Of a stretch of DNA of 64,000 bases, positions 6,820-24,323 are shown piece after piece. Below the pieces are notes generated by a model. The model was not told where the DNA came from. It worked only from the letters and a program-made list of their open reading frames with translations, and searched no databases. Numbering within the stretch: the first letter of the stretch is position 1; every line of letters begins with the position of its first letter. The DNA is from Candidatus Omnitrophota bacterium (GTDB lineage Bacteria > Omnitrophota > Gorgyraeia > 2-02-FULL-51-18), in contig CAMDWQ010000003.1 of assembly GCA_945877765.1 (NCBI GenBank), positions 52,168 to 116,167 of the forward strand. Reading direction: 5' to 3'. A program made the translations under genes and the position numbers.

Positions 6820-6834
6820 AAAAATACCAACTCC

Positions 6835-8979
6835 TTAGACACCCAGCTCTTTAAGTTTTTCAGAGGTCTGGCGGTCGGGCAGTGAACCTACCGACTTTTC
6901 ATTGGCAAAAAAAAGCGTTGAATCCAGTATTTCCTGGACTGTAATTTTTTTCATGCAAGGATGCCCAATGGGACAGCTGCGCAAATAACAAGGGCTGCAT
7001 TGAAGCTCTTTCCAGAATACCTGATAACGCAAAGGTGCGACCAAATGCCTTCGGGGATCTGTGGGTCCAAAAATCGCTATCAATGGCACCCCCACACTTG
7101 CCGCTATATGCATGGGTGCCGAATCAGAACTGATAAATACCTGGCATCGCCGCACCAGGGACACCAACTCACTGATCGACGTTTTTGCCACCGCATTAAT
7201 CGGTTTGTTTCTCGTCAAGCTGAATAGTTCCTCCGCCATCGGGATATCTTCGGCAGATCCGGTAATCACCACGCGAATATTGCGCTTGGCTAGCTCATCG
7301 CAAAGTTTCGCAAAATTTTCAACGGGCCACTGCTTCGTTGGCCAGCGCAGTGAAGAACCGGGGTTTATTCCCACTAATGTCTGACTTGGCGATACCCACT
7401 GAGATTCCAAAAACAAGCGGATGCGCTCGTCTTCCTCTTTCTGAGTCCACATTTCAAGACGCCGGTCCAAATGCTCGACCCCGACCAGTTTGAGTACCTG
7501 AAACTGATGCTCCAACGCCCCTAATCCCGGCGGCGAATCTTTCGTCTTTCGATTTAGAAAAAAAGCCCATTTCCTATTGTCATGTCCCGCCCGCAGTCGT
7601 GCCCCGGAACAAAAGGCTAGTAGATGGCTGATGCGGTTGTTTTGAAGATCCACCACCATATCAAAATCCTCATCCGACAAAAGACGCGTCATCTTCCACA
7701 GGGCCCTCATTTTATTTTTCCCAGGCATATCAAAAACAATGGTGTCATTGATGTAAGGGCAATTGCGGATAATGTTCCGTGCTTTTCTGCCAACGAGCAC
7801 CGAAAGATGGCTATTCGGAAACTTCTCCCGCAGAGCTCGTAAGGAAGGTAGGCTCAAAATGACATCCCCCAAAGCGCTAAGCTTAATCACCAAAATCTTT
7901 TTTTTGGCAACGGCCTCTTCGTAGACTTTTAAAGTTTTCTGAAACATTAGATCCAAATGAAATTCTTTATCCACTCTTGCTTTAAGAGAAAGCGCGCATT
8001 GCCGTGCAAACGCCGGATCCTTAAGATAGCGAAATACCGCATCCGCCAAAATCCTGGGGTCGTCGGGGGGAACCAAAAGACCGTCTCTTTCATGCTCCAA
8101 GATATCCACCAAACCGCCCATCCGCGTCGTCACCACCGGCACACCGGCAGCCCCCGCTTCGATTACCACTCTCCCAAAAGCCTCCTCGCCGACCGAAGGT
8201 GCCACTAAAATTGTCATTTTTGATAGCAGTTCGGCAATGTCATAACGGGTGCCAAGAAATTCAACTGCCTGCGACAAACCCAGATGCTTTACCAAAGAAA
8301 GCAGCTCGTCCTTGTACTGCGGTTTAGGCGCGTCTCCAATAATCTGAATTTTTACATGGGGATAGACACGCGAAACACGCGCCATGGCCTTAAGAAATAA
8401 CGGGTGCCCTTTAATCGGCGTCAACCGGCCGATGAGTCCGATGACAATATTTTTTGAAAAAACATCATCCGGTCTCTCATTAAATTTAAATTCATCCAAG
8501 TTAACACCGCGGGGGATCAGGCGAATTCTCGAATGCGGCACTCCAAAATCATCACGCATTCTTTTGCCGATAATATGACTGGCGACAATCACCAGCTTTC
8601 CCCACCCCATCACTCGGCTTAAAAGATGTTTGGAATAAAAACCGTGGCAGGTTGTCACTAGCGGAACATTCGTCCGGCGGCTGACAAAAAAAGCAATGAG
8701 TGCCGGGACTCGGCTTCGCGCATGAAGGACGTCAATTTTTTCAAGAACGACAATTTTGGAAAGCTCTCGAATGGCAACCAAGACAGAAAAAATATTTTTT
8801 TTGTGAACTGGGAGTGCGTAGTGTTTCACCCCCGCCGAAGTCAAATCCCCGACCATCGCGCCCCCAGCAGACACCACCACGGCACGGTGGCCGTTTTTCT
8901 GGAGATAACACGCCAAGTCGACAGTACCGCGCTCAACACCGCCCGACTGAAGTTCGGGTAAAATCTGAAGAATGTTCAT
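6835..8979 (-). CDS. Fusion glycosyltransferase: N-terminal GT4 (group 1) domain plus C-terminal GT9 heptosyltransferase domain
   Basis: N-terminal GT4 motifs (GGVERGTVDL, EEAFGRVVIEAGAAGVPVVTT); C-terminal GT9 motifs (KKILVIKLSALGDVILSLPSLRALREKFP ... ISSDSAPMHIAA). Confidence 0.8.
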   Translation of the reverse strand: MNILQILPELQSGGVERGTVDLACYLQKNGHRAVVVSAGGAMVGDLTSAGVKHYALPVHKKNIFSVLVAIRELSKIVVLEKIDVLHARSRVPALIAFFVSRRTNVPLVTTCHGFYSKHLLSRVMGWGKLVIVASHIIGKRMRDDFGVPHSRIRLIPRGVNLDEFKFNERPDDVFSKNIVIGLIGRLTPIKGHPLFLKAMARVSRVYPHVKIQIIGDAPKPQYKDELLSLVKHLGLSQAVEFLGTRYDIAELLSKMTILVAPSVGEEAFGRVVIEAGAAGVPVVTTRMGGLVDILEHERDGLLVPPDDPRILADAVFRYLKDPAFARQCALSLKARVDKEFHLDLMFQKTLKVYEEAVAKKKILVIKLSALGDVILSLPSLRALREKFPNSHLSVLVGRKARNIIRNCPYINDTIVFDMPGKNKMRALWKMTRLLSDEDFDMVVDLQNNRISHLLAFCSGARLRAGHDNRKWAFFLNRKTKDSPPGLGALEHQFQVLKLVGVEHLDRRLEMWTQKEEDERIRLFLESQWVSPSQTLVGINPGSSLRWPTKQWPVENFAKLCDELAKRNIRVVITGSAEDIPMAEELFSLTRNKPINAVAKTSISELVSLVRRCQVFISSDSAPMHIAASVGVPLIAIFGPTDPRRHLVAPLRYQVFWKELQCSPCYLRSCPIGHPCMKKITVQEILDSTLFFANEKSVGSLPDRQTSEKLKELGV

Positions 8980-10937
8980 CGGCTTATTTTTTGCGCCGCT
9001 TCACGAAGACGTTCTGAATCCGGATAAACGGCGACCCTGGCAGGAGAAGCTAGGCTTGCTTGGATTTGTGCGCTAAGATTTTCTGCAGTGACTCGTTGAA
9101 TAAGACCCTCATTTTCCATTAAATTTAAAAAATCCACAAACTTTGGCTTCCTGCGCAAACTTTCAAATGGCTCGACCACTAGCACCTTTTTACCCGATGC
9201 CGCCGCCTCTGAAATCATCGAAATTGATTCTCCCGTGACAACCACTAAATCCGAGAGCCCTAGAACTCCAAGAACAATGCCCGCGCGATTCGCTTCATTA
9301 GCGATCACTAAAAGCGGACACAGCGGCTCTTGGGCAAACTTTTCTTTAACCGCCGCTTCAGCCCAGGCGGGAGTTCGTCTGGAAGTCGTGACTAAAATCT
9401 GGGCGCCATTCTCCTGAATGCCCAACCGCAGGCTGTCCAAAATTTTTAAAAAAATATCTTTTTCAAAAATAATTTGCGCGGTGTCACCGCCCGCCAAAAA
9501 ACCAACCACTTTTGAGCCAGGCTTCAAGCTTATCTTATTCCCCAGCGCGGCTGACCCAATCTCAAGAGCCTCTTTAGAGACCTGGGTTAATGCCGCTTGG
9601 GTTTCAAAAACATTGCTATTTTTTTTAAGCCGATCATGCTTGGGGGCAACAATTGCATGAAAGTGCCTCAACCCAAATCCTGGATCCATGACCGCCACCG
9701 ACCGAGCTGCGTTTTCTCGAGCCGCCCAAAGATTAACCCCTGCTACCGAGGAACCGGCCGAGATCACAACATCCGCATAAGTCTGCATTATCTCACGATA
9801 CGAAGCCGGTGTTAAAAACATTTTTGCCCAAAACCTAGCGAAAGGAACGCGCCCGCCAAACAGACTGTTCAGTACCCTAAAAACTTTCTGAAAAAACTCA
9901 TGATGATATTGAACCTCAATGATCTTTAAATGCGTGCGCTCGGGTCCCAAACCGTCCTCCGCGCGCTGGCGGACAATCGTCTCATAAAGCGCCAGCGATT
10001 GGTTGCGGTGCCCCGCTTTTCCGTCACTCAAGACAAGCACAAAACGGTCCGGTGTCGATTTCCACCGGCGGTGAGCCCACAACCACTGGGCGGGCTCTTT
10101 TCTAATTTTAGCTTCCAAAATTACCGCAAACTGCGTAAGAATATTTTTTTCCTTTTCCTCATTGGTCCAGTCTTCAGGGGGTGCTATTAGCGGACCCTCA
10201 ACTTCAATGCGGTGGCTATCCACCCCCTCACGAAAAATAAACGTCGGAAAAATCCGCGCCCCGGTACGCGTTGCAAACGCGGCGACTCCCTTGGGGTAGG
10301 AGGACAGGCGCCCAAAAAACGGGACAAACGTTCCCGACTTTCCGCCATCCTGGTCTCCCAAAATCCCCACAATCCGACCCGCCTTCAAAGACCTCAAAAT
10401 CTCTCGAACCGGCATCCCCTTAAAAATAATTTCACTGCCCTGGGACCGGCGCAGGTCATTGAGATAAGCGTCCGAGCGTGGATGCTTTTGCTCGCGCGCC
10501 AACGCTGTCATGGGATACCCCAACAACCCTCCAGAAATACTTAATAGTTCCCAGTTTCCAAAATGAGCGGTAAGAAATATAACCCCCCGGCCCTCTTTAA
10601 GAACGTTGTCCACCTTTTGGCTGTCAATGACACGAATATGTTTTAAAGCAAATGCTTTATCCATATCAGGGGCATGCAAGAGTTCGATCCCAGCGCGGCC
10701 AATATTCCGAAACGACTCACGCGCAATTTTTTTAAGCTCGGCAGGAGATTTCTCGCCGGCAAATACGGCGCGAAGATTCTTAAGCATTACCGGATGACGT
10801 TTGGTGCCCCAATAAGCCACGTCCCCAATAAAAGATCCTAATTTAATCGCCGCGCGGTAGGGCAATATTTTTACGAGAAATCGGGCAAAGCGGATTGCGT
10901 TTAGCATCAACGCATCTTCGAAGGAGGTCTTGGTCAT
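8976..10937 (-). CDS. Lipid A biosynthesis (Kdo2-lipid IVA) late acyltransferase, LpxL/HtrB family, fused to a C-terminal ELM1/DUF1022-like domain
   Basis: N-terminal 290 aa match the LpxL family (LHAPDMDKAFALKHIRVID, FLTAHFGNWE). C-terminal ~350 aa resemble the Mito_fiss_Elm1 family (LSDGKAGHRNQSLAL). Confidence 0.7.
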   Translation of the reverse strand: MTKTSFEDALMLNAIRFARFLVKILPYRAAIKLGSFIGDVAYWGTKRHPVMLKNLRAVFAGEKSPAELKKIARESFRNIGRAGIELLHAPDMDKAFALKHIRVIDSQKVDNVLKEGRGVIFLTAHFGNWELLSISGGLLGYPMTALAREQKHPRSDAYLNDLRRSQGSEIIFKGMPVREILRSLKAGRIVGILGDQDGGKSGTFVPFFGRLSSYPKGVAAFATRTGARIFPTFIFREGVDSHRIEVEGPLIAPPEDWTNEEKEKNILTQFAVILEAKIRKEPAQWLWAHRRWKSTPDRFVLVLSDGKAGHRNQSLALYETIVRQRAEDGLGPERTHLKIIEVQYHHEFFQKVFRVLNSLFGGRVPFARFWAKMFLTPASYREIMQTYADVVISAGSSVAGVNLWAARENAARSVAVMDPGFGLRHFHAIVAPKHDRLKKNSNVFETQAALTQVSKEALEIGSAALGNKISLKPGSKVVGFLAGGDTAQIIFEKDIFLKILDSLRLGIQENGAQILVTTSRRTPAWAEAAVKEKFAQEPLCPLLVIANEANRAGIVLGVLGLSDLVVVTGESISMISEAAASGKKVLVVEPFESLRRKPKFVDFLNLMENEGLIQRVTAENLSAQIQASLASPARVAVYPDSERLREAAQKISR

Positions 10938-10950
10938 CGGAAAAATAAAA

Positions 10951-11958
10951 TCAGCTGTTCACACACCTGCGGAGAAATTCATCTTCATCGTTAAGCTGAA
11001 ATTCGATCTCCAGCACCCAGAACTGAAAACGCTTCCAGTTTGCGGGAAGCCCGCGCTCAAAGAAAGGCGCCAATCTTTCAAAATCTTTTCGGGTAGTCAC
11101 GATATCCATGGCGCCAACAGCTTCGCTTCGTTTTAAAAACTCATCAATCTCGCTTCGTGAATAATCATGATGGTCATCAAATCTACCGGCAAATACAATT
11201 TCAATTCCGATGTTTTCAACTGTCTTTTCAAAAGAATGCGGATCGGCAAGCCCCGAAAGAGAGGCCACCTTCTTTACCCGGAAGTCGTGAAATCCTACTG
11301 CTTTGTTCAACACAGGATCCCAGAAATGAAGAGGTTTGTGCACCGCTTCAAAAATGACAGCGGTTGGCTTTATTTCATGAATTTTTTGGGTAATCCAGTG
11401 AACATTTTTGGCACCGATATCGCTCTTGGTCAAAATAAAAAGATCAGCACGCGCAATGTTTTCCATCGGCTCCCTCAAAGTTCCAACGGGAATAAGCCCT
11501 CCGGGGCCAAAGGGCTCCGTTGAATTGATCGTCAGAATATCCAAATCCCGATGAAGCCGGATATGCTGAAAACCATCGTCAAGAATCAGGATTTCGGAGC
11601 CATGCTTTTCTACCGCCTCACGCGCCGTTTTAATCCGGTCGCGGCCAACAAGCAAAGGAACATGCGGTAGCTTTTTCTTCAATTCCTCCACCTCATCTTT
11701 CCCGTAGCCGCGAGTCAGAATAGCTACCTTCTTTCCGGAAGCTGAAAGATCCCCCGCTAGCTTTGCCACCAAAGGCGTTTTCCCCGTTCCTCCCCAGGTG
11801 ATGTTCCCCACACTAATCACACGAGCCTTTGATTTTTTGATAGACAAGGGGCCATTTCGATAAGATTTTTGAGATATTTCTAGCACTTTTCGGTAAATGT
11901 CGGCCAAAAGACGAGCGATTGATTTTTTCACTTCCAGATATCTCCTGTAGACTGACAA
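10951..11958 (-). CDS. lpxK: Tetraacyldisaccharide 4'-kinase
   Basis: ISVGNITWGGTGKTPLVAKLA P-loop and LpxK-typical length (335 aa). Confidence 0.9.
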   Translation of the reverse strand: MSVYRRYLEVKKSIARLLADIYRKVLEISQKSYRNGPLSIKKSKARVISVGNITWGGTGKTPLVAKLAGDLSASGKKVAILTRGYGKDEVEELKKKLPHVPLLVGRDRIKTAREAVEKHGSEILILDDGFQHIRLHRDLDILTINSTEPFGPGGLIPVGTLREPMENIARADLFILTKSDIGAKNVHWITQKIHEIKPTAVIFEAVHKPLHFWDPVLNKAVGFHDFRVKKVASLSGLADPHSFEKTVENIGIEIVFAGRFDDHHDYSRSEIDEFLKRSEAVGAMDIVTTRKDFERLAPFFERGLPANWKRFQFWVLEIEFQLNDEDEFLRRCVNS

Positions 11959-13223
11959 AAAATCTGTGTATTTCGGATCAAGGCACCGCGGTGTCCGGAC
12001 ACGAGATTTTGAGCTCTCTGTCCCATCTCGCGCGCCTGCGTCTGGTTCTGCATTAAAAAAACAAGTCTATCTTTCAAATCCCCGGCATCCTTGACGCCAA
12101 TTGCCGCCTTGCCGTTCAAAAAAAGCCGCGACATTTCAAAAAAATTATTCATGTATGGGCCGAATAAAATTGGCTTTGCATAGTAGGCCGGCTCCACTAA
12201 ATTGTGCCCCCCAACCTCCACCAAGCTCCCCCCAACAAACACCGCATCCGCCGCCTGATAAAAATAAGCCAAAAGCCCCATACGGTCCAATAGCCAAGCT
12301 TCCGGACCCCCCTCATCATAACCATTTTGTGCCCCGCTGAAAACTCTTTTTAATCGAATTCCTTTTGCCGCCGCGAGACCTTCTATTGAAGTAAGCCGAT
12401 CTAAATGCCGAGGCGCCAAAAAAAGCGTCAAATGCGGAAAAATTTCACGCAGTTGCAAATACGTGTCCATCAAAACCGCCTCTTCCCCCTCATGCGTACT
12501 GGCCCCAAGACACAAAAATTTCCCCGGCTGCGACAGCTTTTGCCGGACCGCCAATACCTCAGCGGACTCCCCTTGCGGCGGCTCCCAGTCAAATTTAAGA
12601 TTTCCTGTAATTTGCACCTTGCCAGGCTCCGCGCCCAGTTCAAGAAAGCGGTCCTGCATTCGCTCGTCCTGCGCACCAATAGCCGTCAGGCGGTTTAAAA
12701 TTGGCTTCAGAAAAAATCGAATTCGCCGGTATTTTGAAATCGCTTTGTCCGAAATGCGGCCATTTAAAATAAACAGGGGTATCTTTTTTTCCGAAAGCTC
12801 CCAAATCAAATTGGGCCAGATCTCCGTCTCCATAAAAGCCACCGCGTCCGGATGGACCGCCCGCACAAACCGCCTCACCGCAAAGCGAAAATCCACCGGA
12901 AACTGCAGCAACACATCCTGGGGATTCATCGACTTGGCCGCCACCTCATAACCGGTCACCGTTGTCGTCGTCAGAACAAACTTCACACCGGAAAATATTT
13001 CTCTCCAGTGACTGAGCACGCGTATCGCTAAAGCGACCTCCCCAACGGACACCGCATGGATCCAAATTACTTTTTTCCCTTTAAGCTTTTCCACCACCGC
13101 TTGCTCAACATGTCCCAATCGAGAACCCAAACCGCCCTTACTTTTCCCTTTGAGAATAAAAAGAGGCAAGTAGAAAAGAGAAAAGATAAAAAATAAAAAA
13201 TCATAAATAAGGCGGGTTAGCAT
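11928..13223 (-). CDS. waaA: 3-deoxy-D-manno-octulosonic acid (Kdo) transferase
   Basis: KVIWIHAVSVGEVALAIRVL motif; 431 aa GT30 family. Confidence 0.9.
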   Translation of the reverse strand: MLTRLIYDFLFFIFSLFYLPLFILKGKSKGGLGSRLGHVEQAVVEKLKGKKVIWIHAVSVGEVALAIRVLSHWREIFSGVKFVLTTTTVTGYEVAAKSMNPQDVLLQFPVDFRFAVRRFVRAVHPDAVAFMETEIWPNLIWELSEKKIPLFILNGRISDKAISKYRRIRFFLKPILNRLTAIGAQDERMQDRFLELGAEPGKVQITGNLKFDWEPPQGESAEVLAVRQKLSQPGKFLCLGASTHEGEEAVLMDTYLQLREIFPHLTLFLAPRHLDRLTSIEGLAAAKGIRLKRVFSGAQNGYDEGGPEAWLLDRMGLLAYFYQAADAVFVGGSLVEVGGHNLVEPAYYAKPILFGPYMNNFFEMSRLFLNGKAAIGVKDAGDLKDRLVFLMQNQTQAREMGQRAQNLVSGHRGALIRNTQIFCQSTGDIWK

Positions 13224-13287
13224 ATTAGATCCCTCGACTCTCCGCCAAAGATCGCTGGCGGATCGCTCGGGATGACACTATTACACA

Positions 13288-13450
13288 AAGGGTTGGCTGG
13301 CAAAGCTTTTTGAGACGCGTAGATAAGGCGAGCGGCCATGGTGTCCCCGTCGTAATAGACGGGGACGAGCGAGCTCTTATCTATCGAGTTAATTTTTCCT
13401 CGGAGGGGAAAAATTAACGCCGGCTCAAATAGATTTGCCAGCCAACCCTG
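13288..13450 (+). repeat. Copy A of a ~160-bp structured intergenic repeat (family 2): outer 16-bp inverted repeat enclosing a conserved ~110-nt multi-hairpin core
   Basis: Outer IR agggttggctggcaaa / tttgccagccaaccct. Core: gcgtagataaggcgagcggccatggtgtccccgtcgtaatagacggggacgagcgagctcttatctatcgagttaatttttcctcggaggggaaaaattaacgccggc. Confidence 0.8.
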
Positions 13451-13469
13451 GTTGTAGCCCACAAGCACC

Positions 13470-14357
13470 TCAAGCTCTTGGATGCGCTTTATCATAAGCC
13501 TCTTTTAACCTCTGTGTCGACACGTGCGTATATATCTGTGTCGTCGATAAATTTTCATGCCCTAAAAGTTCCTGCACCGAGCGCAAATCCGCCCCATGAT
13601 TTAAAAGATGTGTCGCAAATGAGTGTCGTAAAGTGTGCGGTGAAATATTATCTCTTTTGCAAGTATTTTCAATGTGCTTATCCACGATACGGCAGACGCT
13701 TCGGCTGGTCAAGCGAGACCCTTCTTGATTCGGCGAATGATTTAAAAAAAGTGCTCGCGAGGATCTTTTTTTTCCTTCGTCTCGCACCTGGAGGTACTGG
13801 CGAATGCATTTGAGCGCTCGGCTGCCGATGGGGCAAAATCTTTCCTTGTTTCCCTTCCCCAGCACCCGGCAAACCCCACCTATAAAATCAACCTTCTCAA
13901 GGTCAAGTCTCACAATTTCAGAAACTCGCATCCCCGTCGAGTACAGAGTCTCAAGAATCGCTCGGTCACGGCAGCCAAAAATATCCTCTCCTGGCGAATC
14001 CAAGAGCTTTGTCATCTCATCCTCTTCGAGCACCATCGGAAGCTTTTTCTCCTGCTTAGGGTTACGCACGCTAGCAATAGGGTTCTTTGCCAGGTGGCCT
14101 TCGCGCGTCAAAAATCGGAAGTACGTCCTTAGCGCCGCCATGCGCCGTGCCACCGTACGTTTGGACAGCTCCAGCTGGCTTAACGAAGCCAAATAACGTC
14201 TTATCAGATCCTTATTGAGCTCTGTTAATGGGACTTCTCCTAAAAATTCGTAGAAATTTTTTAAGTCATGCGTATAACTTAGCGTCGTGTGCGGAGAATA
14301 ATTTTTCTCGGCTCTCAAATAGACCAAAAATCTTTCCGTGAGCTTATTGGGAAACAT
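13470..14357 (-). CDS. xerC: Tyrosine recombinase XerC/XerD family. The probable true start is the internal Met at 14357; the ORF track extends it to 14570.
   Basis: RAEKNYSPHTTLSY ... HTLRHSFATHLLNHGADLRSVQELLGHENLSTTQIYTHV catalytic R-H-R-Y box. Confidence 0.85.
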   Translation of the reverse strand: MFPNKLTERFLVYLRAEKNYSPHTTLSYTHDLKNFYEFLGEVPLTELNKDLIRRYLASLSQLELSKRTVARRMAALRTYFRFLTREGHLAKNPIASVRNPKQEKKLPMVLEEDEMTKLLDSPGEDIFGCRDRAILETLYSTGMRVSEIVRLDLEKVDFIGGVCRVLGKGNKERFCPIGSRALKCIRQYLQVRDEGKKRSSRALFLNHSPNQEGSRLTSRSVCRIVDKHIENTCKRDNISPHTLRHSFATHLLNHGADLRSVQELLGHENLSTTQIYTHVSTQRLKEAYDKAHPRA

Positions 14358-14373
14358 AGGCGGTTTTAAGCCC

Positions 14374-16584
14374 TTACGCTTCTGGTTCTTGCGGTGATTC
14401 CTGGCCCTGGGCAGGCTTTGAGGCAGGGAGCCTATTGGTAATAAATGTACATGCCGGATAGGCCGTGCACCCAAAAAAAGAGCGTCCTTTTCCGGATTTA
14501 GCGCGGCGCGCGACAAGCTTTCCTGCGGTGCATTGCGGACAAGAGACATCCGTTGAAATGGATTTGGCATTTTTACATTCGGGCCAACCCGAGCAGCTCA
14601 TAAAACGTCCGCGGCGCCCCCACTTGATCACCATGGGTTTCCCGCACTGGCCGCAAACTTCATCGGTGGGCTCCGCCTCTCGCCGCACCGTTTGCATTTG
14701 GGTTTTTGCGGATTCGATTTGTCCGCTGAAAACATCGTAAAAATCCTTCACGACTTTTTTCCATCCCACAACGCCTTCTTCTACCTGGTCGAGACCTTCC
14801 TCTAGATGTGCGGTAAACTCAAAGTTGAGTACTTTCTCAAAATGTTTTACCAAAAGATCGGTTACCAGCATACCCAAATCCGTCGGTAGGAGGCTGCCGC
14901 CTTCACGTCGAATATAATCGCGGCTCGTGAGTGTCAAAATAATCGGTGCATAAGTGGATGGGCGGCCAATACCGCCCTCTTCCATCGCTTTGACCAACGA
15001 AGCATCGGTAAATCGCGGAGGCGGCTTAGTAAAATGCTGGATCGGATCAATCTTAAGCAGCTTTAAAACTTCTTTTTCCAAAAGCTCCGGCAGAGGATGA
15101 TCCTCTTCATCGGACCGGCCCGCAACGGCTAAAAATCCGGCAAACTCAACACGGCTACCCGTGGCGTGAAAAAAAAACTCACCCGCCTTGATAGTAGCCG
15201 CTTCTTGCGCGATAGAAGCGGGGGTCATTTGGCTAGCCACCGCCTGCTGCCAAATCAATGCATAAAGTTTTTGTTGGTCCGGCGTTAAATAGCTCTCAAT
15301 CTCCTGGGGCTTCCTAAAAAAAGAAGAGGGCCGAATGGCCTCATGGGCTTCCTGCGCCTGCTTTTTTGATTTGTACACATTGGGCATTGCCGGCAAATAA
15401 TCTTTTCCATAATTTTTTCCAATAAATTCACGGACTTCCTTAATCGCCTGATCCGATAGGCGAACAGAATCTGTTCGCATGTAGGTAATCAAACCAACGC
15501 TTCCCTCTTCGCCGATCTCCACACCTTCATAAAGCGTCTGGGCTACTTTCATTGTTTTTGAGGCGGGAAAGCGCAGCGCGTTATAAGCGGCCTGCTGAAG
15601 TTTGCTGGTAGTGAAGGGTGCCTGCGGATTTCTTTTTTTCTTTAACTTTTTAAGCTCTTCGACGACAAAAGATTGTGCTTTGGCCTTATCCAAGGTCTCT
15701 GCCGCCGTTTTTTGATTGGTAATCTCGGCTTTGACCTTGCCAATTTTTTCTAGTTTGGCTACAAAGGGGGTGTTGTCGCCTTTCTGCTTAGAGAGCTGGG
15801 CTTCAATCGTCCAGTATTCTTCCGGCTTAAACGCACGAACATCTCTTTCCCGATCAACAATTAGCCGCAGGGCTACTGACTGAACACGGCCCGCTGAGAG
15901 CCCGCGGCTTACTTTTTGCCACAGAAGCGGGCTTAAGTTGTAACCGACCAGACGGTCCAAAACTCGCCGCGCTTGCTGCGCATCCACAAGATTCTGGTTG
16001 ATCTCTAAAGGGTGTTTGAAGGCTTCTAGGATGGCGGTCTTAGTGATTTCATTGAATACCACACGATGCACTTCTTTGCCAGCACCCAATTGATTTTTTA
16101 AATGCCAGCTAATCGCTTCGCCTTCGCGGTCAGGATCGCAAGCCAGATAGAGTTTTAATTTTCCCTTATTTTTTTTCTTCAGGTCTGCCAGGGTTTTTTT
16201 GCGGTCCTTGGTAACAATGTACTGAGGCTCGAAATTATTTTCAATATCGATTCCCATTTTGCTTTTTGGCAGATCGACGACATGCCCCATGGAGGCGGCT
16301 ACTTCAAAGCCGGGCCCCAGATATTTCTGGATTGTTTTGCACTTGGCGGGTGATTCCACAATGACCAAAGCACCTTGCGGTTTGGCTCCGCCGCCAACAA
16401 AGTGAACGATCTCAATTTCGTCGCCTTCGTGGATCAGGGCTTGGGCAAGCCGCTCCTTAGGAATAATTTCAAAATTATGCTCAACGACGACTTTCTCCTT
16501 GGCCAGCGAAAGTTTATCCAAAAGCTGGGCGAGCGTGAGCGTCTCGTTAAAATCCTTAAGCTCACCATTTAATCGTATTTTCAT
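14374..16584 (-). CDS. topA: DNA topoisomerase I with an in-frame N-terminal 66-aa ThiS/MoaD-like beta-grasp domain ending in GGG
   Basis: The TopA core starts at LVIVESPAKCKTIQKYLG ... GHVVDLP and has C-terminal Zn ribbons. The preceding 66 aa (MKIRLNGE...EIEIVHFVGGG) are a textbook ThiS. No stop codon separates the two. Confidence 0.85.
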   Translation of the reverse strand: MKIRLNGELKDFNETLTLAQLLDKLSLAKEKVVVEHNFEIIPKERLAQALIHEGDEIEIVHFVGGGAKPQGALVIVESPAKCKTIQKYLGPGFEVAASMGHVVDLPKSKMGIDIENNFEPQYIVTKDRKKTLADLKKKNKGKLKLYLACDPDREGEAISWHLKNQLGAGKEVHRVVFNEITKTAILEAFKHPLEINQNLVDAQQARRVLDRLVGYNLSPLLWQKVSRGLSAGRVQSVALRLIVDRERDVRAFKPEEYWTIEAQLSKQKGDNTPFVAKLEKIGKVKAEITNQKTAAETLDKAKAQSFVVEELKKLKKKRNPQAPFTTSKLQQAAYNALRFPASKTMKVAQTLYEGVEIGEEGSVGLITYMRTDSVRLSDQAIKEVREFIGKNYGKDYLPAMPNVYKSKKQAQEAHEAIRPSSFFRKPQEIESYLTPDQQKLYALIWQQAVASQMTPASIAQEAATIKAGEFFFHATGSRVEFAGFLAVAGRSDEEDHPLPELLEKEVLKLLKIDPIQHFTKPPPRFTDASLVKAMEEGGIGRPSTYAPIILTLTSRDYIRREGGSLLPTDLGMLVTDLLVKHFEKVLNFEFTAHLEEGLDQVEEGVVGWKKVVKDFYDVFSGQIESAKTQMQTVRREAEPTDEVCGQCGKPMVIKWGRRGRFMSCSGWPECKNAKSISTDVSCPQCTAGKLVARRAKSGKGRSFFGCTAYPACTFITNRLPASKPAQGQESPQEPEA

Positions 16585-16590
16585 CGAATG

Positions 16591-17679
16591 TTATGCCTTT
16601 TGAAAATATTTTCCAGGCGACTCTTTGATAAGTCCCTTCATCTGCAATGCAGATAAGACGGTCACTGTTTTTTGCAAGGAAATCCCCGCGCCCTCCACGA
16701 CCTCCTCCAGCTGCACTGGGCCGGAATCCAAAAGTGAAAATAATTTTTCTTCTTCTGCCGAAAGCGCTGCTCGCTGAGAAGATTTGGCTCTCCGGGAAAC
16801 AAGAAGCCCTAAATCGGACAAAATATCCTGTGCGGACATCACAAGACACGCCCCCTGCTTTAAAAGAGAGTTGGTCCCAAATGACTTCGAAGAGTCCGCA
16901 TTGCCGGGCAACGCAAAAACCCCGCGGCCTTGCTCGAGCGCCAGATCCGCGGTGATCAAGGCCCCGCTTTTTTCCTTGGCCTCCACCACGAATACGGCGC
17001 TAGAGAGTCCGCTAATAATACGATTTCTTACTGGAAAACAACCAGGGTCCGGCGACATCTCTACTGGGTACTCCGAAACAAGTGCCCCATTTTCACAGAT
17101 TTTTTCAGCTAATCGTTTGTTTTCTTTTGGGTATAGCTTTGCAATGCCCCCACCCAACACCGCGATAGTGCATCCCTTCCCAGCAAGCGCCCCCTCATGA
17201 GCGGCCGTATCAATGCCTAACGCCAGTCCGCTGACCACAACCACCCCTGCCCCAGCCAAATCACTTGAAATCTGAGACGCCATTCGTCGGCCGTAAAGAG
17301 AAGCCACCCGAGAACCCACCACAGCCACATTCACGCTTTCGGCTGGCGGCAGAGAACCTTTAACGTAAAGCAAGATAGGAGGATCGTGAATTTCACGAAG
17401 AAGCGCCGGATATCTCTCGTCAAAAATAGGAATGATATCAATTTGATGCTTCAGCGCCTTCTCAATCTCTTCATCTGCGCGCGGGAGAAGGTCTGCTGCC
17501 TTCAAATCCTCCCATAGTACTCGAATCCCTTTTTTCTGACTCTCAAAATTATCTTTTCTAACTGAAAAAATGGATCCTTCGCCACCAAATCTGTCGGCTA
17601 GTTTTTTATAGCTCACCGGACCCATATTTTTAACGAGGCTTAGCGCTACGATCTCACGCAGTTTGTTCGTGCTTGTCAT
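16591..17679 (-). CDS. dprA: DNA processing protein A (Smf)
   Basis: Rossmann-like DprA core (GIDTAAHEGAL ... VLGGGIAKLYP). The dprA-topA arrangement is conserved in many bacteria. Confidence 0.85.
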   Translation of the reverse strand: MTSTNKLREIVALSLVKNMGPVSYKKLADRFGGEGSIFSVRKDNFESQKKGIRVLWEDLKAADLLPRADEEIEKALKHQIDIIPIFDERYPALLREIHDPPILLYVKGSLPPAESVNVAVVGSRVASLYGRRMASQISSDLAGAGVVVVSGLALGIDTAAHEGALAGKGCTIAVLGGGIAKLYPKENKRLAEKICENGALVSEYPVEMSPDPGCFPVRNRIISGLSSAVFVVEAKEKSGALITADLALEQGRGVFALPGNADSSKSFGTNSLLKQGACLVMSAQDILSDLGLLVSRRAKSSQRAALSAEEEKLFSLLDSGPVQLEEVVEGAGISLQKTVTVLSALQMKGLIKESPGKYFQKA

Positions 17680-17683
17680 TAGC

Positions 17684-18196
17684 TTATGTCCTCGAAACCA
17701 ACATTTTTTGAATCAAATCGGCGACCTGAGAGGCGCTTTTTCCATCGGTGTCAAAATAATAATCTGCCTGCTGATACAACGGTTTTCGTTTTTCCATCAA
17801 CGCCTGAATTTCAGTAAATAAATTCTCCTTGGCGCTCAAAAGGGGACGGCGTTTTGAATTTTTAACGCGTTCATAGATGGTCTCGGGCTTGGCGGCAAGC
17901 GTCACCAGGATGCCGTTGCTTTTCAACAGGGTCAAATTTTCAGGGTCCAGCACCGTACCGCCGCCGGTTGTAATCACGTGGTTGTCTGCGCCTGCCCAGA
18001 ACCTCACCGCTTCTTTTTCGATGGTCCGAAAATACGGCTCGCCTTCTTTCTCAAAAATTTCCCGTATTTTTCTTTTTTCTTTATCTTCTAGATAGGAATC
18101 AAGATCCACATACTGTCTCTTCGTGCGTCTGGCCAGAAGTCGACCCACGCTAGATTTTCCGGTTCCCATAAATCCCATCAAGACAATATTTTTCAA
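17684..18196 (-). CDS. aroK: Shikimate kinase
   Basis: GFMGTGKSSVGRLLA P-loop, 170 aa. Confidence 0.9.
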   Translation of the reverse strand: MKNIVLMGFMGTGKSSVGRLLARRTKRQYVDLDSYLEDKEKRKIREIFEKEGEPYFRTIEKEAVRFWAGADNHVITTGGGTVLDPENLTLLKSNGILVTLAAKPETIYERVKNSKRRPLLSAKENLFTEIQALMEKRKPLYQQADYYFDTDGKSASQVADLIQKMLVSRT

Positions 18197-18202
18197 ATGA
18201 AT

Positions 18203-19327
18203 CTAAAAATTCTCGAGTTGTTTTTTATATCCCTGGAAATTGCGTAAAGTTTCCTTGAGAGAATCGCCACCAAATTTTTCAAGATAGGCTGCCGCCAGTT
18301 CAAACGCAACCATCGCCTCGCCCACGACGCCGCACGCCGGTACCGCCGTCACATCCGAGCGCTCCACCGTAGCGGCTTGCTTTTGCTTAGTGCTGATATC
18401 CACAGACTGTAGCGGGCTCATGAGCGTCGCGTAGGGCTTGGTAGCGGCTCGCAAGACGAGATCTTCTCCGTTAGTCACACCACCCTCAAAACCCCCTGCG
18501 TTGTTGCTTTTGCGATAAAATCCTTTTTTCTTGTCATGGAAAATTTCATCGTGCACGTCCTTGCCCAAATTTCTCGACACGTCAAAACCCATCCCCACTT
18601 CCACACCCTTGACCGCCTGGATCGACATCAGTCCTGCGCAAAGCTTGGCCGTCAGGCGGCGGTCATAATGCACAAAACTTCCCAAGCCTACCGGTACCCC
18701 CGTTACCACCACCTCAAAAATACCCCCGATCGTGTCCTTAGAAAGCTTTGCCCCGTCGACTCGCGCCATCATTTTCTTTTCAGCTGCTTTGTCGGCGCAG
18801 TGCATGGGCGAACCCATCGACTCTTTTTTAAGCGTTTTAAAATTCATCCCCTGAGTGTTGGCCGTGACACCCCCGATTGAAACCACATGGCTTAAAATAT
18901 CCACCCCAAACTCTTTTAAAAATACCCGGCAAACAGCACCCACCGCCACACGAGCCGCCGTCTCGCGGGCACTGGCGCGCTCAAGGATATCGCGAACATC
19001 TTGCGTGCCATATTTCATGGCACCCACAAGATCAGCGTGTCCGGGCCTGGGACGCTTCACTACCGGAAGCTGATTAATCTTAAAATCTTTATTGGGAACA
19101 AGTAGAGCAATTGGTCCGCCGATCGTCTTACCAAAGCGAACTCCGGACAAAATTTCAGCCGTATCTTTTTCAATCGTCATACGGCCTCCCCGCCCATAAC
19201 CTTCCTGACGGCGAGCCATGTCTACATCGATTATCTTCTCTTCGACACCAAGCCCTGAAACCATTCCCTCAAGAATCGCCACAAGGCATTTCCCGTGAGA
19301 TTCACCGCTAGTCAAAAATCGAAGCAT
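18203..19327 (-). CDS. aroC: Chorismate synthase
   Basis: MLRFLTSGESHGKCLVAILEGMVSGL N-terminus, 374 aa. Confidence 0.9.
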   Translation of the reverse strand: MLRFLTSGESHGKCLVAILEGMVSGLGVEEKIIDVDMARRQEGYGRGGRMTIEKDTAEILSGVRFGKTIGGPIALLVPNKDFKINQLPVVKRPRPGHADLVGAMKYGTQDVRDILERASARETAARVAVGAVCRVFLKEFGVDILSHVVSIGGVTANTQGMNFKTLKKESMGSPMHCADKAAEKKMMARVDGAKLSKDTIGGIFEVVVTGVPVGLGSFVHYDRRLTAKLCAGLMSIQAVKGVEVGMGFDVSRNLGKDVHDEIFHDKKKGFYRKSNNAGGFEGGVTNGEDLVLRAATKPYATLMSPLQSVDISTKQKQAATVERSDVTAVPACGVVGEAMVAFELAAAYLEKFGGDSLKETLRNFQGYKKQLENF

Positions 19328-19357
19328 AACAAACCTCCTATGAAATTGTCGGTAGAA

Positions 19358-20137
19358 TCAAAGCCCAATTCGATTCAAATACCAGGCGATCACCGCCTGT
19401 CCATAAAAAATATAAAAAATGGCTCCCAAACCCAAAAAAGGCCCAAAAGGAATCTGCTCTTCCTTCTTTTTGAATTTAAAATAAATACCTGCGATAGATC
19501 CCGCAAACGATCCCATCATTAGAGCCCAAAGCACGCCCCTAAAACCCAAGAAAGCGCCAAACATCGCCAAGAGCTTCACGTCGCCTCCGCCCATCGCCTC
19601 TTTTTTTAGAAAAAATTCAGCGATCACTGCGATGAGATACAAAAAGCCGCCGCCGATAAACACGCCGATCACCGAAGCCAAGAGCCCTTCCCACCAGCTA
19701 TTCGCCCCGTGCATCATGGGAAAAAAACAAGATAGAATGATTCCCAACACAATCCCAGAAAGCGTAATCTCATCAGGAATGATCTTGTGCTCAAAATCAA
19801 TAAGACTTTCTACCAAGACTGCCAGGGTGAAAATAAGATAAATAAGTCCCATTGCCTCTAGGCCAAAAAAATGATAAAAAGCAACAAACAGCATCCCGGT
19901 CAGAAATTCCACCAGGGCGTGCTGTGCTGAAAATGAGACGCCGCAATCACGACATTTCCCACGCAAAAGAAAATAGCTCAACACCGGCAGATTGTCGTAC
20001 CAACGAATCGGCTTCCCGCACGCACCGCAATGAGAACCCGGCGAAACCACCGACTCGTTTCTGGGTAGCCGATAAATACACACATTCAAAAAACTGCCTA
20101 CTATCGTCCCAAAAACAAACAGAATAAAGCTCATCAT
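19358..20137 (-). CDS. Prepilin (type IV leader) peptidase, A24 family. The likely start is the Met-Met at 20137, overlapping the aroE stop.
   Basis: CIYRLPRNESVVSPGSHCGACGKPIRWYDNLPVLSY Zn-finger region plus multi-TM C-terminal region. Confidence 0.8.
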   Translation of the reverse strand: MMSFILFVFGTIVGSFLNVCIYRLPRNESVVSPGSHCGACGKPIRWYDNLPVLSYFLLRGKCRDCGVSFSAQHALVEFLTGMLFVAFYHFFGLEAMGLIYLIFTLAVLVESLIDFEHKIIPDEITLSGIVLGIILSCFFPMMHGANSWWEGLLASVIGVFIGGGFLYLIAVIAEFFLKKEAMGGGDVKLLAMFGAFLGFRGVLWALMMGSFAGSIAGIYFKFKKKEEQIPFGPFLGLGAIFYIFYGQAVIAWYLNRIGL

Positions 20138-21012
20138 TAAAGCTCCTGTCCTTTCAAAGCATCCAGCATGATTTTGCGCACACCGTCTTTCTTGCCCGTC
20201 CAAATCTCAAACGACAATACCGCCTGATTCACCAGCATCCCCAAACCGTTGGCATGAGGAAAACCGAGCGCTTTGGCTGTTTGTAAAAAAGGGGTCTCAT
20301 TGGGTGAGTAAACCAGATCATAAGCCGCGGTCTTTCTTTCCAGGATTCTCAAATCCAGCGGAATATCCTGGTTTCCCTTCATCCCGCAGCTGGTGGCGTT
20401 AACCACTAAATCAATAGCTTCGCCCTGAACCTCATAAAGATACTTTACCGCTTCAAATTCAGTTTCAGAAAAAAATCCAGCAGCAAGCTCGGTTAATCCT
20501 TGGGCTCGTTCGACATGGCGATTCAAGACCCATACTTTATTGGCATGCGCACGGGCTAACGAAAAAACGACACTGCGGGCCGCCCCTCCAGCCCCCAAGA
20601 CTAAAATCGATTTGCCTTCAGGATTAAACGAAAGCTCTTCGTTAAGCGCCATTAAAAATCCGGGACCATCCGTGTTGTAGCCCAGCAGCGTCCCATGATC
20701 GTTTCGCACCGTATTAATGGCGCCAATGCGGCGGTCAACGTCCTCCGGAATGTCGTCGATGAAATTCAACGCCTCTTCTTTGTAGGGAATGGTGATATTG
20801 GCTCCGCGCATACCCATCGCACGAAATGCCTCAAACGCGATTCCCAGATAACCGGTCTCAATCGGAAAGGCGAGGTAAGCGGCGTTGATTTGAAGATGAG
20901 AAAAAGCCGCATTTTGAATTAGTGGCGAAAGAGAGTGGCTGACGGGATTACCAAAAATACCGTAGAGTTGCGTCTGGGCGTTGACTACGATCTGCTGGTC
21001 GCGGGTCATCAA
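20137..21012 (-). CDS. aroE: Shikimate dehydrogenase
   Basis: LYGIFGNPVSHSLSPLIQNAAF ... LVLGAGGAARSV motifs. Confidence 0.9.
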   Translation of the reverse strand: MMTRDQQIVVNAQTQLYGIFGNPVSHSLSPLIQNAAFSHLQINAAYLAFPIETGYLGIAFEAFRAMGMRGANITIPYKEEALNFIDDIPEDVDRRIGAINTVRNDHGTLLGYNTDGPGFLMALNEELSFNPEGKSILVLGAGGAARSVVFSLARAHANKVWVLNRHVERAQGLTELAAGFFSETEFEAVKYLYEVQGEAIDLVVNATSCGMKGNQDIPLDLRILERKTAAYDLVYSPNETPFLQTAKALGFPHANGLGMLVNQAVLSFEIWTGKKDGVRKIMLDALKGQEL

Positions 21013-22565
21013 ACCCCGTATGCCCCGGAATCTTTTTTTAAAACCCCGCCGCGATAGACAATTTTATTGATGGCATCCAAATAAGCGCGCACACTGGCTT
21101 CGATGATGTCCGTGCTGACACCCTGACCAATCACTACTTTATTGGATTTGTGATCTTGCACTTTCACTGTCACTTCCCCTTGGGCATCCTTGCCCACGGT
21201 GACTGAGCGGATCTGATAATCAAGAAGCCGTGTTTTTTGCGCAATAATTTTGTCGACAAGCTTGAAAGCGGCATCCACAGGCCCGCTCCCGCTGCCTGCA
21301 GCCTCATGCACTTTGGCTTTGGAGCGGATGCTGATGTTGACTTTAGGCTCTTTGCCGGTTTGGGTCAATACACTCAGTGAAACCAACTCGTAAGTCTTGG
21401 GCGCTGAAATAATTTCAGTATCCACCAGCGCGTTTAAATCATCATCAAAGACTTCTTTTTTCTTGTCCGCCAACTGCTTAAAATTCTCAAATGCTTTTTC
21501 CAGCTCTTTGGCTGTTAATTGATAGCCCAACTTGTGCAAACGGCTTTCCAGCGCATGACGGCCAGAATGCTTGCCAAGCACCAATTGAGTCTCGCCAAAA
21601 CCGACGTCTTCCGGCCGGATTATTTCATAAGTTTTGCGGTGCTTTAAAAGGCCGTCCTGATGAATGCCGGACTCATGGGTAAAGGCATTGCGCCCCACGA
21701 TGGCTTTATTGGGCTGAACAACCATGCCCGTAAGAGAGCTGACCAAGCGGCTGGCCTTGCAAATCTGATCCTTGCAGACATTGGTATGTTTGCCATAAAT
21801 ATCCGGCCGCGTATCCAGCGCCATGACAATCTCTTCCATCGCTGCGTTACCCGCGCGCTCCCCGATACCGTTGACGGTGCACTCTACTTGCCGCGCTCCA
21901 AAACGAACCGCCGCCAGCGAGTTGGCAACCGCCAACCCCAAATCATTGTGACAGTGAACGCTAATAATCGCTTTGTTAATATTGGGCACATGGTCAAAAA
22001 TTCCCTTGATCAGATTGCCGTATTCAAAAGGGGTTGTGTATCCCACCGTGTCCGGGATATTGACAATCGTGGCGCCCGCATTGATAACGGCTTCGACGAC
22101 CTCATAAAGAAAATCAGGCTCGGTGCGTGAAGCGTCTTCCGGTGAAAACTCAACTTCACCAATACGATTACGCGCATACTTGACTGCTTGGACCGCCAAG
22201 TGAACAATTTCAGACTTTGCTTTTTTTAATTTGTACTGACGATGTATCGCGGACGTCGCCAAAAAAACATGCAAGCGAGATTTTTTGGCTGGTTTTAAGG
22301 ACGCCAGCGCGACCTCCATGTCTTTTTCAATCGCACGCGCCAAAGCACAAATCGTCGGGCCCTTAATTTCCGCCGCTATTTTTTTTACGGCTGCCGCATC
22401 GCCCGGAGATGTGATGGGAAAACCAGCTTCGATGATATCCACGCGCATCTGCGCCAATTGACGCGCAATTTCAAGCTTGCGCTTCATGTCCAGGCTCGCT
22501 CCAGGAGACTGCTCACCGTCCCTCAGAGTCGTATCAAATATGTATATTCTATTTTTCTCGTCCAT
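21009..22565 (-). CDS. leuA: 2-isopropylmalate synthase (or citramalate synthase; LeuA family with C-terminal regulatory domain)
   Basis: [19 protein letters not shown] ... [17 protein letters not shown] motifs; 518 aa. Confidence 0.85.
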
Positions 22566-22617
22566 CTTCCTACCTTTTACCTATCTTCCAATTAGTGATT
22601 TCTTTTATGGGTGGCGA

Positions 22618-23604
22618 TCACATCCACTTCATCATCCCGCGCAATTTAGCCCCGACCTTTTCAATCGGATGGTTGTCATGAGCATGCCGCAGCCGGTTGA
22701 AATTTTTCTTTCCATTTTTGTAATCAGCCAAAAATTCCTTGGCGAATTTACCTGACTGAATCTCTTTTAATATTTTTTTCATTTCTTCACGGGTTTTTTT
22801 GTTCACAATGCGAGGTCCGCGAGTCAAATCCCCATATTCTGCTGTATCGGAGACACGCTTTCTCATTCCCTGGACCCCAGTGGCGTAAATCAAGTCGGTG
22901 ATCAGTTTCAACTCGTGCAGACATTCAAAATAAGCAATTTCAGGCTGATAACCGGCTTTCACCAGCGTCTCAAAACCTGCCATGACCAACTCCGCCGTGC
23001 CGCCGCACAAAACCGACTGCTCGCCGAATAGATCCGTCTCGGTCTCTTCTTTAAATGTTGTTTCGATGACACCCGCGCGTGTCCCACCCAATGCTTTGGC
23101 GTAAGCCAGCGCCAGCTTCTTGCAATTCTTGGTCGCGTCTTGATAGACCGCAATCAAACAAGGCACACCCTTTCCCTCTTCGTACTGCCGGCGAACGAGA
23201 CTGCCGGGGCCCTTGGGGGCAACCATGAATACGTCGACAAACTTAGGCGGCATAATCTGTTTAAAGTGAATATTGAATCCATGAGAAAAAGCTAACGCCT
23301 TGCCCTTGGTCAAATAAGGATCCACAGACGTTCTATAAATTTCGGCCTGGAGCGGGTCTTGCGCTAGAATGATAATAACGTCTGACTTCTGAGCTAGCTC
23401 GGCGGCATCCATTGGCTTAAAACCATCTTTTATCGCTATGTCATAATTAGGTCCGCCAGGACGCTGAGAAACCAACACCTTGAGACCGCTGTCTCGTAAA
23501 TTAAGCGCCTGTCCTCGGCCCTGAATTCCGTAACCGATCACACCAACGGTTTTATTTTTAATGAAAGAAAGATCTGCGTCTTTGTCGTAATAAATTTTAG
23601 CCAT
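22618..23604 (-). CDS. ilvC: Ketol-acid reductoisomerase
   Basis: [19 protein letters not shown] ... class I KARI, 328 aa. Confidence 0.9.
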
Positions 23605-23626
23605 TTTGTATTTCCTTTTTTATTCT

Positions 23627-23695
23627 GTCATCCCCGAAGTGTTTAATCGTGGATCATGTTTGGTTTGATTCCCGATAAAAGCATTCGGGAATGAC
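23627..23695. repeat. REP-like hairpin doublet (family 1) between ilvC and ilvH
   Basis: gtcatccccgaagtgtttaatcgtggatcat + gtttggtttg + attcccgataaaagcattcgggaatgac. Confidence 0.75.
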
Positions 23696-23701
23696 GTATA
23701 G

Positions 23702-24214
23702 TTAGTTTTTTGGTAGTTTGTTCGAAAGCGCGACAGCGCCCGTTTGGGCGATTTCGACAATGCCGATGCCTTTGAGCAGTGCAAAAATCTTTTTTGCGTT
23801 CTCACGCGTCTCGGTGCACTCCAGCGTTATCAGGCTGTGATTTTCATCTGCCACCTGGGCACGAAATTGTGACATCACCGATTTGAGCGCCTCCTTGACT
23901 TGGGGAGTGTTTCTTAATTTGACCAACATCAATTCGCGGTCCACAAATCCCTCTTCGCTCAAATCCTGCACTTTAATCACATCCAGCAGCTTGTTGAGCT
24001 GCTTTTTGATCTGCTCGATGGTTTTTTGATCCCCTTCTGCAACCAATGTGATCCTTGAAGCGGTAGGGTCCTCAGTTTCGCCTACTGCCAGCGACCGAAT
24101 GTTAAATCCTCTAGCCGAAAAAAGACCGACCACGCGCGAAAGCACTCCCGCGTGATTCTCAACCAGCACAGACAGCATCCGGCTTTCGACGGGTGTTGCG
24201 TCATGAATTGCCAT
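23702..24214 (-). CDS. ilvH: Acetolactate synthase small (regulatory) subunit
   Basis: ACT domain MLSVLVENHAGVLSRVVGLFSARGFNIRSLAV. Confidence 0.9.
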   Translation of the reverse strand: MAIHDATPVESRMLSVLVENHAGVLSRVVGLFSARGFNIRSLAVGETEDPTASRITLVAEGDQKTIEQIKKQLNKLLDVIKVQDLSEEGFVDRELMLVKLRNTPQVKEALKSVMSQFRAQVADENHSLITLECTETRENAKKIFALLKGIGIVEIAQTGAVALSNKLPKN

Positions 24215-24235
24215 ATACTTAACCTTTCTTACAGT

Positions 24236-24305: not shown

Positions 24306-24323
24306 AAGGGTTGGGAATTGTTA

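Follow-up and report, generated by a model that had tools for sequence, protein, structure and literature searches.

A ThiS sulfur-carrier domain is fused in-frame to DNA topoisomerase I across much of the Omnitrophota, with a Gly-Gly junction that suggests processing

Can a sulfur carrier that works through a free C-terminal Gly-Gly also be encoded as the front end of a DNA topoisomerase, and what would become of such a product? Adenylation and thiocarboxylation of ThiS, the sulfur carrier in question and a small bacterial relative of ubiquitin, need a free Gly-Gly carboxylate. The question is raised by a stretch of 64,000 nucleotides from a Candidatus Omnitrophota bacterium (contig CAMDWQ010000003.1, assembly GCA_945877765.1), hereafter the window, in which thiS runs directly into topA, the gene for DNA topoisomerase I (TopA). 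The complete thiS::topA fusion open reading frame (ORF) lies at 14374..16584 on the minus strand, as do all features of the window located below; it starts with ATG and encodes 736 aa followed by a stop codon. The Omnitrophota thiS::topA is a real, phylum-wide and previously undescribed case of an N-terminal sulfur-carrier or ubiquitin-like (Ubl) fusion at Gly-Gly, for which we infer a mechanism. A ThiS-topoisomerase fusion was not mentioned in the literature that we searched.

The translated ORF reads MKIRLNGE...EIEIVHFVGGG, then AKPQGA, then LVIVESPAKCKT, without a stop codon before TopA. The first 66 codons (16387..16584; MKIRLNGELKDF...GDEIEIVHFVGGG) encode the ThiS domain, a beta-grasp sulfur carrier of 66 aa. 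It ends in Gly64-Gly65-Gly66, encoded as GGC GGC GGA (16387..16395), which form the C-terminal tail of ThiS and the proposed cleavage site, with Ala67 as the P1' residue. The linker AKPQGA (aa 67–72) occupies 16369..16386, and DNA topoisomerase I proper (aa 73–736) occupies 14377..16368. The junction-spanning peptide of the fusion is LAQALIHEGDEIEIVHFVGGGAK, and the predicted cut at GGG|A would leave a TopA with the N-terminus AKPQGALVIVESPAK.

Both parts were recognised by models of their families. The ThiS equivalog model TIGR01683 (NCBIfam) matched with 73.3 bits against a cut-off of 37.45, covering positions 1–64 of its 64, and PF02597 (ThiS) matched aa 3–66 (E 1e-14 for the domain alone; 55 bits against a cut-off of 22.5). 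The best PDB sequence match of the domain was Bacillus subtilis ThiS in the ThiS-ThiG complex (1TYG chain B, E 9e-9), whose tail, IEIVHFVGGG, is identical to that of the window ThiS. The TopA equivalog model TIGR01051 (NCBIfam) matched aa 73–676 with 782 bits against a cut-off of 456, together with PF01751, PF01131 and two copies of PF01396 (Pfam). This TopA is complete, with a Toprim domain at aa 73–180, a Topoisom_bac domain at aa 194–613 and two C4 zinc ribbons at aa ~642–706. The window ORF is ThiS fused in-frame to a complete TopA, and an earlier note on this DNA, which described a near-canonical ThiS of 66 codons ending in GGG and running without a stop into topA, was accurate on each of these points. 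As encoded, the GG is internal (aa 65–66 of 736), and without proteolysis the product lacks the free C-terminal Gly-Gly expected of ThiS.

The same ThiS + TopA architecture was present in 99 of the best 120 TopA homolog clusters by similarity to the window protein, to which the homolog counts below refer, at 54–100% identity. Every source name given for the fused clusters is Candidatus Omnitrophica or Omnitrophota. The search with the ThiS domain returned fragments rather than full-length fusions as 50%-cluster representatives and was unusable for counting fusions. The earlier note had proposed looking for the fusion in relatives and had named a stop codon lost by sequencing error as one thing that would undo it. 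Such an artefact, in which the stop after GGG is missing in this contig only, could appeal to the relatives that do have separate thiS and topA genes. It is already refuted by the conservation data: 99 distinct clusters, at 54–85% identity, are fused alike, and contigs from three assemblies (ENA, NCBI, Logan) encode the very same protein of 736 aa. Read off the codons, the two alternative frames also lack a stop close behind GGG, and we put the chance of an artefact at practically nil. Separate genes in relatives, which the note had also counted as a refutation, do exist (L005, L086, L089 and L090), and the fusion stands beside them; both the fused and the separate state persist in Omnitrophota.

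Comparison of the Omnitrophota loci distinguished four states. The fused state is that of the majority and includes the deep lineages L087 and L088, in which genes are inserted between dprA and the fusion. In the second state, a separate thiS with the canonical GGG end touches topA: in L090 the two genes share a frame across the junction GGC-TAA-ATG, and one stop-codon substitution would fuse them, while in L089 the TGA stop of thiS overlaps the ATG of topA (GGATGATG). In the third state, a separate thiS ends in GGG plus 1–2 residues (A, AA, AF, AV, C or YE). Ends of this kind were found in 18 of the 20 standalone ThiS clusters obtained with the L005 query (P0271–P0288, one Omnitrophota clade) and in L086; the genes are located at L005:9792–9998, 2 nt before the topA start, and at L086:9798–10004, overlapping topA by 4 nt. 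To judge by their ends, these proteins look like short precursors needing C-terminal trimming. The fourth state has no thiS: in L091 dprA is directly followed by topA, and the TopA protein P0086 carries a 93-aa N-terminal extension that is not ThiS.

The abutting or overlapping stop and start signals imply translational coupling of thiS and topA, and the existence of separate genes in relatives indicates that the fusion arose through evolutionary loss of a stop codon, or a frameshift, between adjacent coupled genes. When the TopA core was placed in a rough neighbour-joining (NJ) tree with other phyla as the root, the fused proteins fell into at least three clades, separated by lineages of the split and no-thiS states. 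The interleaving implies that the states interconverted more than once and that evolution treats them as functionally equivalent. P0086, encoded on a contig of ERZ1426840 directly after dprA, is 69% identical to the window protein in TopA and stands amid fused proteins in the tree; its extension may be a degenerated or replaced ThiS domain.

At the junction itself, P2 and P1 were Gly-Gly in 99 of 99 fused proteins (4.32 bits, the maximum). P1' was Ala in 76, Ser in 17 and Gly in 3 (A, S or G in 96/99; 3.24 bits) and was never Pro, while P2'–P4' varied (1.2–1.7 bits) and the linkers, rich in A, K, G, S and P, ranged from 4 to 40 aa. Relatives use different Gly codons here (GGC, GGA or GGG), which places the constraint at the protein level. 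Within the ThiS domain, an alignment of 87 full-length fused proteins showed N6, G7, L22, V32, E35, N37, E58, G65 and G66 to be invariant. In information content per column, the fused domains followed free GG-terminated ThiS proteins (Pearson 0.91, a value subject to the bias noted below), and this agreement, like the TIGR01683 score, speaks for a retained ThiS function. An AlphaFold2 (AF2) model built from the 87-sequence alignment had a mean predicted local distance difference test score (pLDDT) of 85 and a predicted template modelling score (pTM) of 0.75, with the ThiS domain and TopA both confident. Residues 1–61 form a beta-grasp (strand-strand-helix-strand-strand-strand; pLDDT 84–90), and residues 63–67 (VGGGA), between two well-folded modules, fall below a pLDDT of 50. 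The GG tail is predicted to be exposed and flexible or disordered, and the residue pattern suggests a processing site at the junction.

Purifying selection on the fused ThiS domain is already visible in the aligned sequences, which bears on two alternatives. According to the first, the fusion is a harmless accident and ThiS a decaying passenger without function, as might be supposed from the loss of ThiS at topA in some lineages (L091, P0086). A decaying passenger fits poorly with a domain that is strongly conserved while TopA diverges to 54% identity, that keeps N6, G7, E35, N37, E58, G65 and G66 invariant and that still scores above the TIGR01683 cut-off; we regard such a neutral relic as highly improbable. 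According to the second, TopA is made alone from an internal start near LVIVESPAK, the full-length product is minor or irrelevant, and the ThiS part is non-functional for want of a free C-terminus. The earlier note had pointed to the in-frame TTG of LVIV as such a start, and in the window Leu73 is indeed TTG and is preceded by a Shine-Dalgarno-like motif, AAGG(T); in addition, the GGAGG-like Gly codons are the likely ribosome-binding site of topA in the split relatives. The start is not conserved, however: relatives open LVIVE with CTG, CTT or CTC for Leu, the LVIV stretch of L088 lacks any NTG codon, and Met is present in only 1 of the 99 linkers of fused homologs. Furthermore, a non-functional ThiS should decay, yet the domain is conserved like free ThiS. 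We consider an internal start very unlikely to explain the fusion.

The surroundings of the fusion were compared with 80 control TopA loci from other phyla, recovered via the universal TopA motifs LVIVESP[AT]K and SMGHV.DLP. In the window, dprA (16591..17679; PF02481, PF17782) belongs to the same operon and ends, stop codon included, 6 nt before the ATG of thiS::topA, while a xerC/xerD-type tyrosine recombinase gene (13470..14357; PF02899 and PF00589, L001) lies 16 nt downstream of topA. These genes are part of an operon-like run of aroE, prepilin peptidase, aroC, aroK, dprA, thiS::topA, xerC, kdtA, lpxK and onward. The order around thiS::topA is kept in relatives down to 54% TopA identity, and a xerC/xerD-type gene follows topA in every Omnitrophota locus examined. 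The Omnitrophota protein thus resembles canonical bacterial TopA in being a TIGR01051 equivalog encoded after dprA and followed by xerC, as in Bacillus-type operons. The earlier note had called the dprA-(thiS-like)-topA order non-standard. This did not hold for dprA and topA, since dprA was directly upstream of topA in 62/80 control loci, but it did hold for the interposed thiS: a ThiS-like ORF was found within ±10 kb of topA in 0/80 control loci, in contrast to every Omnitrophota locus examined except L091. What sets the phylum apart is therefore the thiS adjoining topA. In one deep fused lineage only, a PIG-L/LmbE-family gene (zinc-dependent deacetylase/amidase; L087:9282–9968) lies between dprA and thiS::topA.

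What, then, becomes of the product? Its full sulfur-carrier conservation signature, including the disordered and invariant GG tail, is most simply explained if the ThiS domain is still a sulfur carrier. Since a free carboxylate at the C-terminus is a requirement of ThiS chemistry, the fused forms as well as those extended by 1–2 residues would then have to be cleaved after GG. We give about an even chance to the explanation that the product is a polyprotein, which originated when the stop codon separating two translationally coupled genes was lost and which is cut after GG; the cut itself, the protease, the E1 and the acceptor of the sulfur are all inferred here. The thiS and topA genes would be ancestral neighbours in Omnitrophota, with abutting or overlapping stop and start signals, and loss of the stop codon in the window lineage would have produced a single 82-kDa polyprotein of ThiS, a flexible linker and TopA. 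A Gly-Gly-specific peptidase, most likely of the JAMM/MPN type or else another protease, would cut at GGG|A(S) and yield free ThiS and a TopA starting with a short disordered tail. The ThiS part would remain a working carrier, on which a ThiF/MoeB-type E1 carries out adenylation and thiocarboxylation. In sister lineages, the 1–2 extra residues of unfused ThiS would be removed by this Gly-Gly peptidase too, and a trimming step that existed beforehand would explain why fusions were tolerated and repeatedly fixed. Because most Omnitrophota lack ThiG, the freed ThiS is probably used by a Thi4-type thiazole synthase or in some other transfer of sulfur. Proteolytic maturation, which the earlier note had raised, is the best-supported mechanism, given the universal GG, the small P1' residue and the precedent of MoaX described below; the pattern suggests that the thiS::topA product may be cleaved in two.

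Two other ways of releasing ThiS were considered and set aside. Autoproteolysis through a nucleophilic P1' residue is unlikely as a general mechanism when P1' is Ala in 76/99, and a programmed frameshift yielding free ThiS would require a stop soon after GGG, which neither alternative frame offers when read off the codons.

Known fusions of ubiquitin-fold proteins provide the closest comparisons. UBA52, RPS27A and polyubiquitin are ubiquitin-fold precursors freed after Gly-Gly by dedicated deubiquitinases, after which the ubiquitin is conjugated to proteins. As in UBA52 and RPS27A, the Ubl of thiS::topA stands N-terminal to an unrelated essential housekeeping protein; the difference is that it is a sulfur carrier and that its cleavage is putative. 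ThiS::ThiG fusions, which were among the closest relatives of the window ThiS domain in a search of 1.8 billion representative proteins, resemble it in ThiS family, in the ...HFVGGG tail and in the variable linker that leads to the second domain. They differ in their partner, since ThiG is the very thiazole synthase that consumes the thiocarboxylate of ThiS, and in that they are not specific to Omnitrophota; to our knowledge, their processing has not been characterised. An experimental precedent is MoaX of Mycobacterium tuberculosis, a molybdopterin synthase in the form of a MoaD-MoaE fusion that is cut at Gly82|Ser83 by an unidentified protease and requires the cut for activity (PMC4326299); in Deinococcus radiodurans, the JAMM peptidase DRJAMM cleaves MoaD-MoaE (PMC8832034). 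Like MoaX, thiS::topA joins an N-terminal ThiS/MoaD-family carrier via Gly-Gly to a downstream protein and has a small P1' residue (Ser in MoaX, A/S in thiS::topA). MoaE, however, is the catalytic partner of its own carrier, whereas TopA is an essential DNA enzyme; the fusion shares with the MoaX type the GG followed by a small residue and not the functional partnership.

JAB cleavage of fused ThiS/MoaD proteins was predicted by Iyer et al. 2006, whose list of fusions includes ThiS::ThiG and others and no topoisomerase, and who also described operons of ThiS/MoaD, JAB and E1 genes (PMC1779556). The split Omnitrophota ThiS ends GGGA, GGGAA and GGGAF resemble the precursors of JAMM-trimmed carriers of the QbsE/QbsD and PdtH/PdtG type. 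In those systems the JAB peptidase and E1 are encoded in the same operon, whereas the Omnitrophota thiS sits between dprA and topA with neither nearby, and the aroK-dprA-thiS::topA-xerC-kdtA loci that we examined are not JAMM/E1-linked Ubl operons as described by Iyer et al. 2006. Residues after GG were present in about half of the 150 closest ThiS representatives, which may be a mixture of gene-calling errors and true fusions. Two metagenomic proteins, P0177 and P0149, carry ThiS (...HFVGGG) N-terminally fused to a family-9 glycosyltransferase and a glyoxalase-fold domain, respectively, while P0289 is an unrelated ThiS adjoining nuo genes.

Several points weigh against a cleaved polyprotein. 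We know of no link between TopA and sulfur transfer, and thiS has been lost altogether at topA in some lineages (L091, P0086), which implies that TopA has no strict need of it. Cleavage is argued from sequence pattern and precedent. The agreement between fused and free GG-terminated ThiS in per-column information content (Pearson 0.91) is inflated, as the free set was chosen by similarity to the window domain. Neither in the 64-kb window nor within ±10 kb at nine related loci did we find a gene for a JAMM/MPN peptidase, a ThiF/MoeB E1, Thi4 or ThiG, and PF14464, PF01398 and PF00899 were absent from the gene listings of the related loci examined. According to a survey of complete Omnitrophota genomes, thiG is present in 38/176 of them, while thiC, thiE, thiL and iscS are near-universal (bioRxiv 10.64898/2026.06.07.730766); a ThiS function is plausible on this gene content, but in most of the phylum the sulfur acceptor for ThiS is hypothetical. 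In one Omnitrophica genome, thi4 stands in a cluster with thiS and thiF, and its product complemented Escherichia coli better when the host ThiF and ThiS were present (PMC13325395). This, too, makes a ThiS function plausible in the phylum, but the topA-linked copy could then be a paralog with a different role. Finally, the deep linkage of thiS with topA and the repeated fusion could, by a 'Rosetta-stone' argument, indicate that ThiS and TopA interact directly.

The same observations bear on the main rival explanation, namely that the fusion is never cleaved. Here the ThiS-like beta-grasp would be a permanent ubiquitin-like domain of TopA, or its non-covalent partner in the split lineages, which would regulate TopA or recruit it to another protein (e.g., an E1-like enzyme) instead of carrying sulfur for a cofactor. 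The thiS-topA linkage is phylum-specific (0/80 controls), outlasts the loss of dprA adjacency (L087, L088) and has led to fusion in at least three clades, a classic signature of interacting proteins; an uncleaved module is also consistent with the lack of a nearby protease or E1 in the window and in the flanks of related loci, with the lack of ThiG in most Omnitrophota (bioRxiv 10.64898/2026.06.07.730766) and with the other thiS at the thi4/thiF cluster of one Omnitrophica genome (PMC13325395). It is harder to reconcile with the canonical sulfur-carrier conservation profile, including the invariant and predicted-disordered GG tail, for which a docking domain has no obvious need, and with a linker whose length varies tenfold, which is hard to fit with a fixed geometry relative to TopA. 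In addition, some lineages dispense with ThiS at topA, and the split forms with canonical GGG ends resemble ordinary ThiS. We consider an uncleaved module possible, though unlikely. The more specific proposal that the Omnitrophota ThiS-like protein is a ubiquitin-like partner of TopA, kept adjoining or fused to it through TopA binding, regulation or a TopA-connected conjugation, appears doubtful to us. If it is correct, there would be a connection between a prokaryotic Ubl/E1 system and DNA topology control; and a ThiS domain that is never cleaved off would give a type IA topoisomerase a regulatory module of a new kind.

Should the polyprotein model hold instead, a whole bacterial phylum would produce its essential topoisomerase I from a precursor headed by a ubiquitin-like protein, and nothing described so far in prokaryotes would come closer to the ubiquitin-ribosomal-protein fusions of eukaryotes. 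Omnitrophota would then also have a peptidase for processing at Gly-Gly, of the sort that must act on MoaX. The series of states, from a GG end through GG plus 1–2 residues and GG plus the whole TopA to no ThiS, offers a comparative handle for finding the peptidase by phylogenetic profiling. The finding also bears on thiazole synthesis without ThiG in Omnitrophota, possibly by ThiS with Thi4. The fusion is currently annotated as 'type I DNA topoisomerase' only, and pathway reconstructions that score thiS gene by gene may miss its ThiS function.

With regard to thiamine and sulfur metabolism in the window, genes for a ThiL-like AIRS-domain protein (28264..29184) and a class-V aminotransferase of the NifS/IscS cysteine desulfurase type (31000..32145) lie 12–15 kb upstream of the fusion and fit a thiamine and sulfur-relay capacity of this organism. 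Between them, overlapping the thiL start by 4 nt, is a gene for an Rce1-like CPBP (CAAX-type) intramembrane protease (29181..30230). The Rce1-like/CAAX family trims C-terminal residues in eukaryotes; we found no evidence tying this protease to ThiS. No Rfam match for control by a thiamine pyrophosphate (TPP) riboswitch was found in the window. For the phylum as a whole, Seymour et al. 2023 gave thiamine synthesis in >75% of genomes, where module M00127 as stored comprises thiC and thiD only and leaves the thiazole branch unaddressed; a portion of the rows of their KEGG orthology (KO) tables includes neither K03149 nor K03148, which is a hint only.

The N-terminus of TopA showed a further feature in the split lineages (P0107, P0111, P0116–P0118; e.g., L005:10001–10080 and L086:10001–10160), where it is a long Lys/Ala/Pro-rich tail of histone-H1-like composition. 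Several long linkers of fused proteins are likewise basic, such as that of P0113 with 14 K+R in 35 aa. This composition suggests a DNA-binding tail ahead of the Toprim domain.

Nearly all long ORFs of the window (1..64000) are on the minus strand. A search of both strands of the whole 64 kb against Rfam gave no family at gathering score, and no tRNA, riboswitch or other known RNA. The lipopolysaccharide (LPS) cluster downstream of the fusion contains two further fusion genes, one joining GT4 and GT9 glycosyltransferases (6835..8979) and the other a lipid-A acyltransferase and Mito_fiss_Elm1 (8976..10937), both of which are present in all Omnitrophota relatives examined. An AbiEi antitoxin/AbiEii nucleotidyltransferase toxin pair, i.e., a type IV toxin-antitoxin or abortive-infection system, lies at 57709..59105. 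Large proteins are a known trait of Omnitrophota, and the 1610-aa ORF at 59161..63993, whose sole Pfam signal is a weak protein-kinase-like stretch at aa ~1065–1154, may be one of them.

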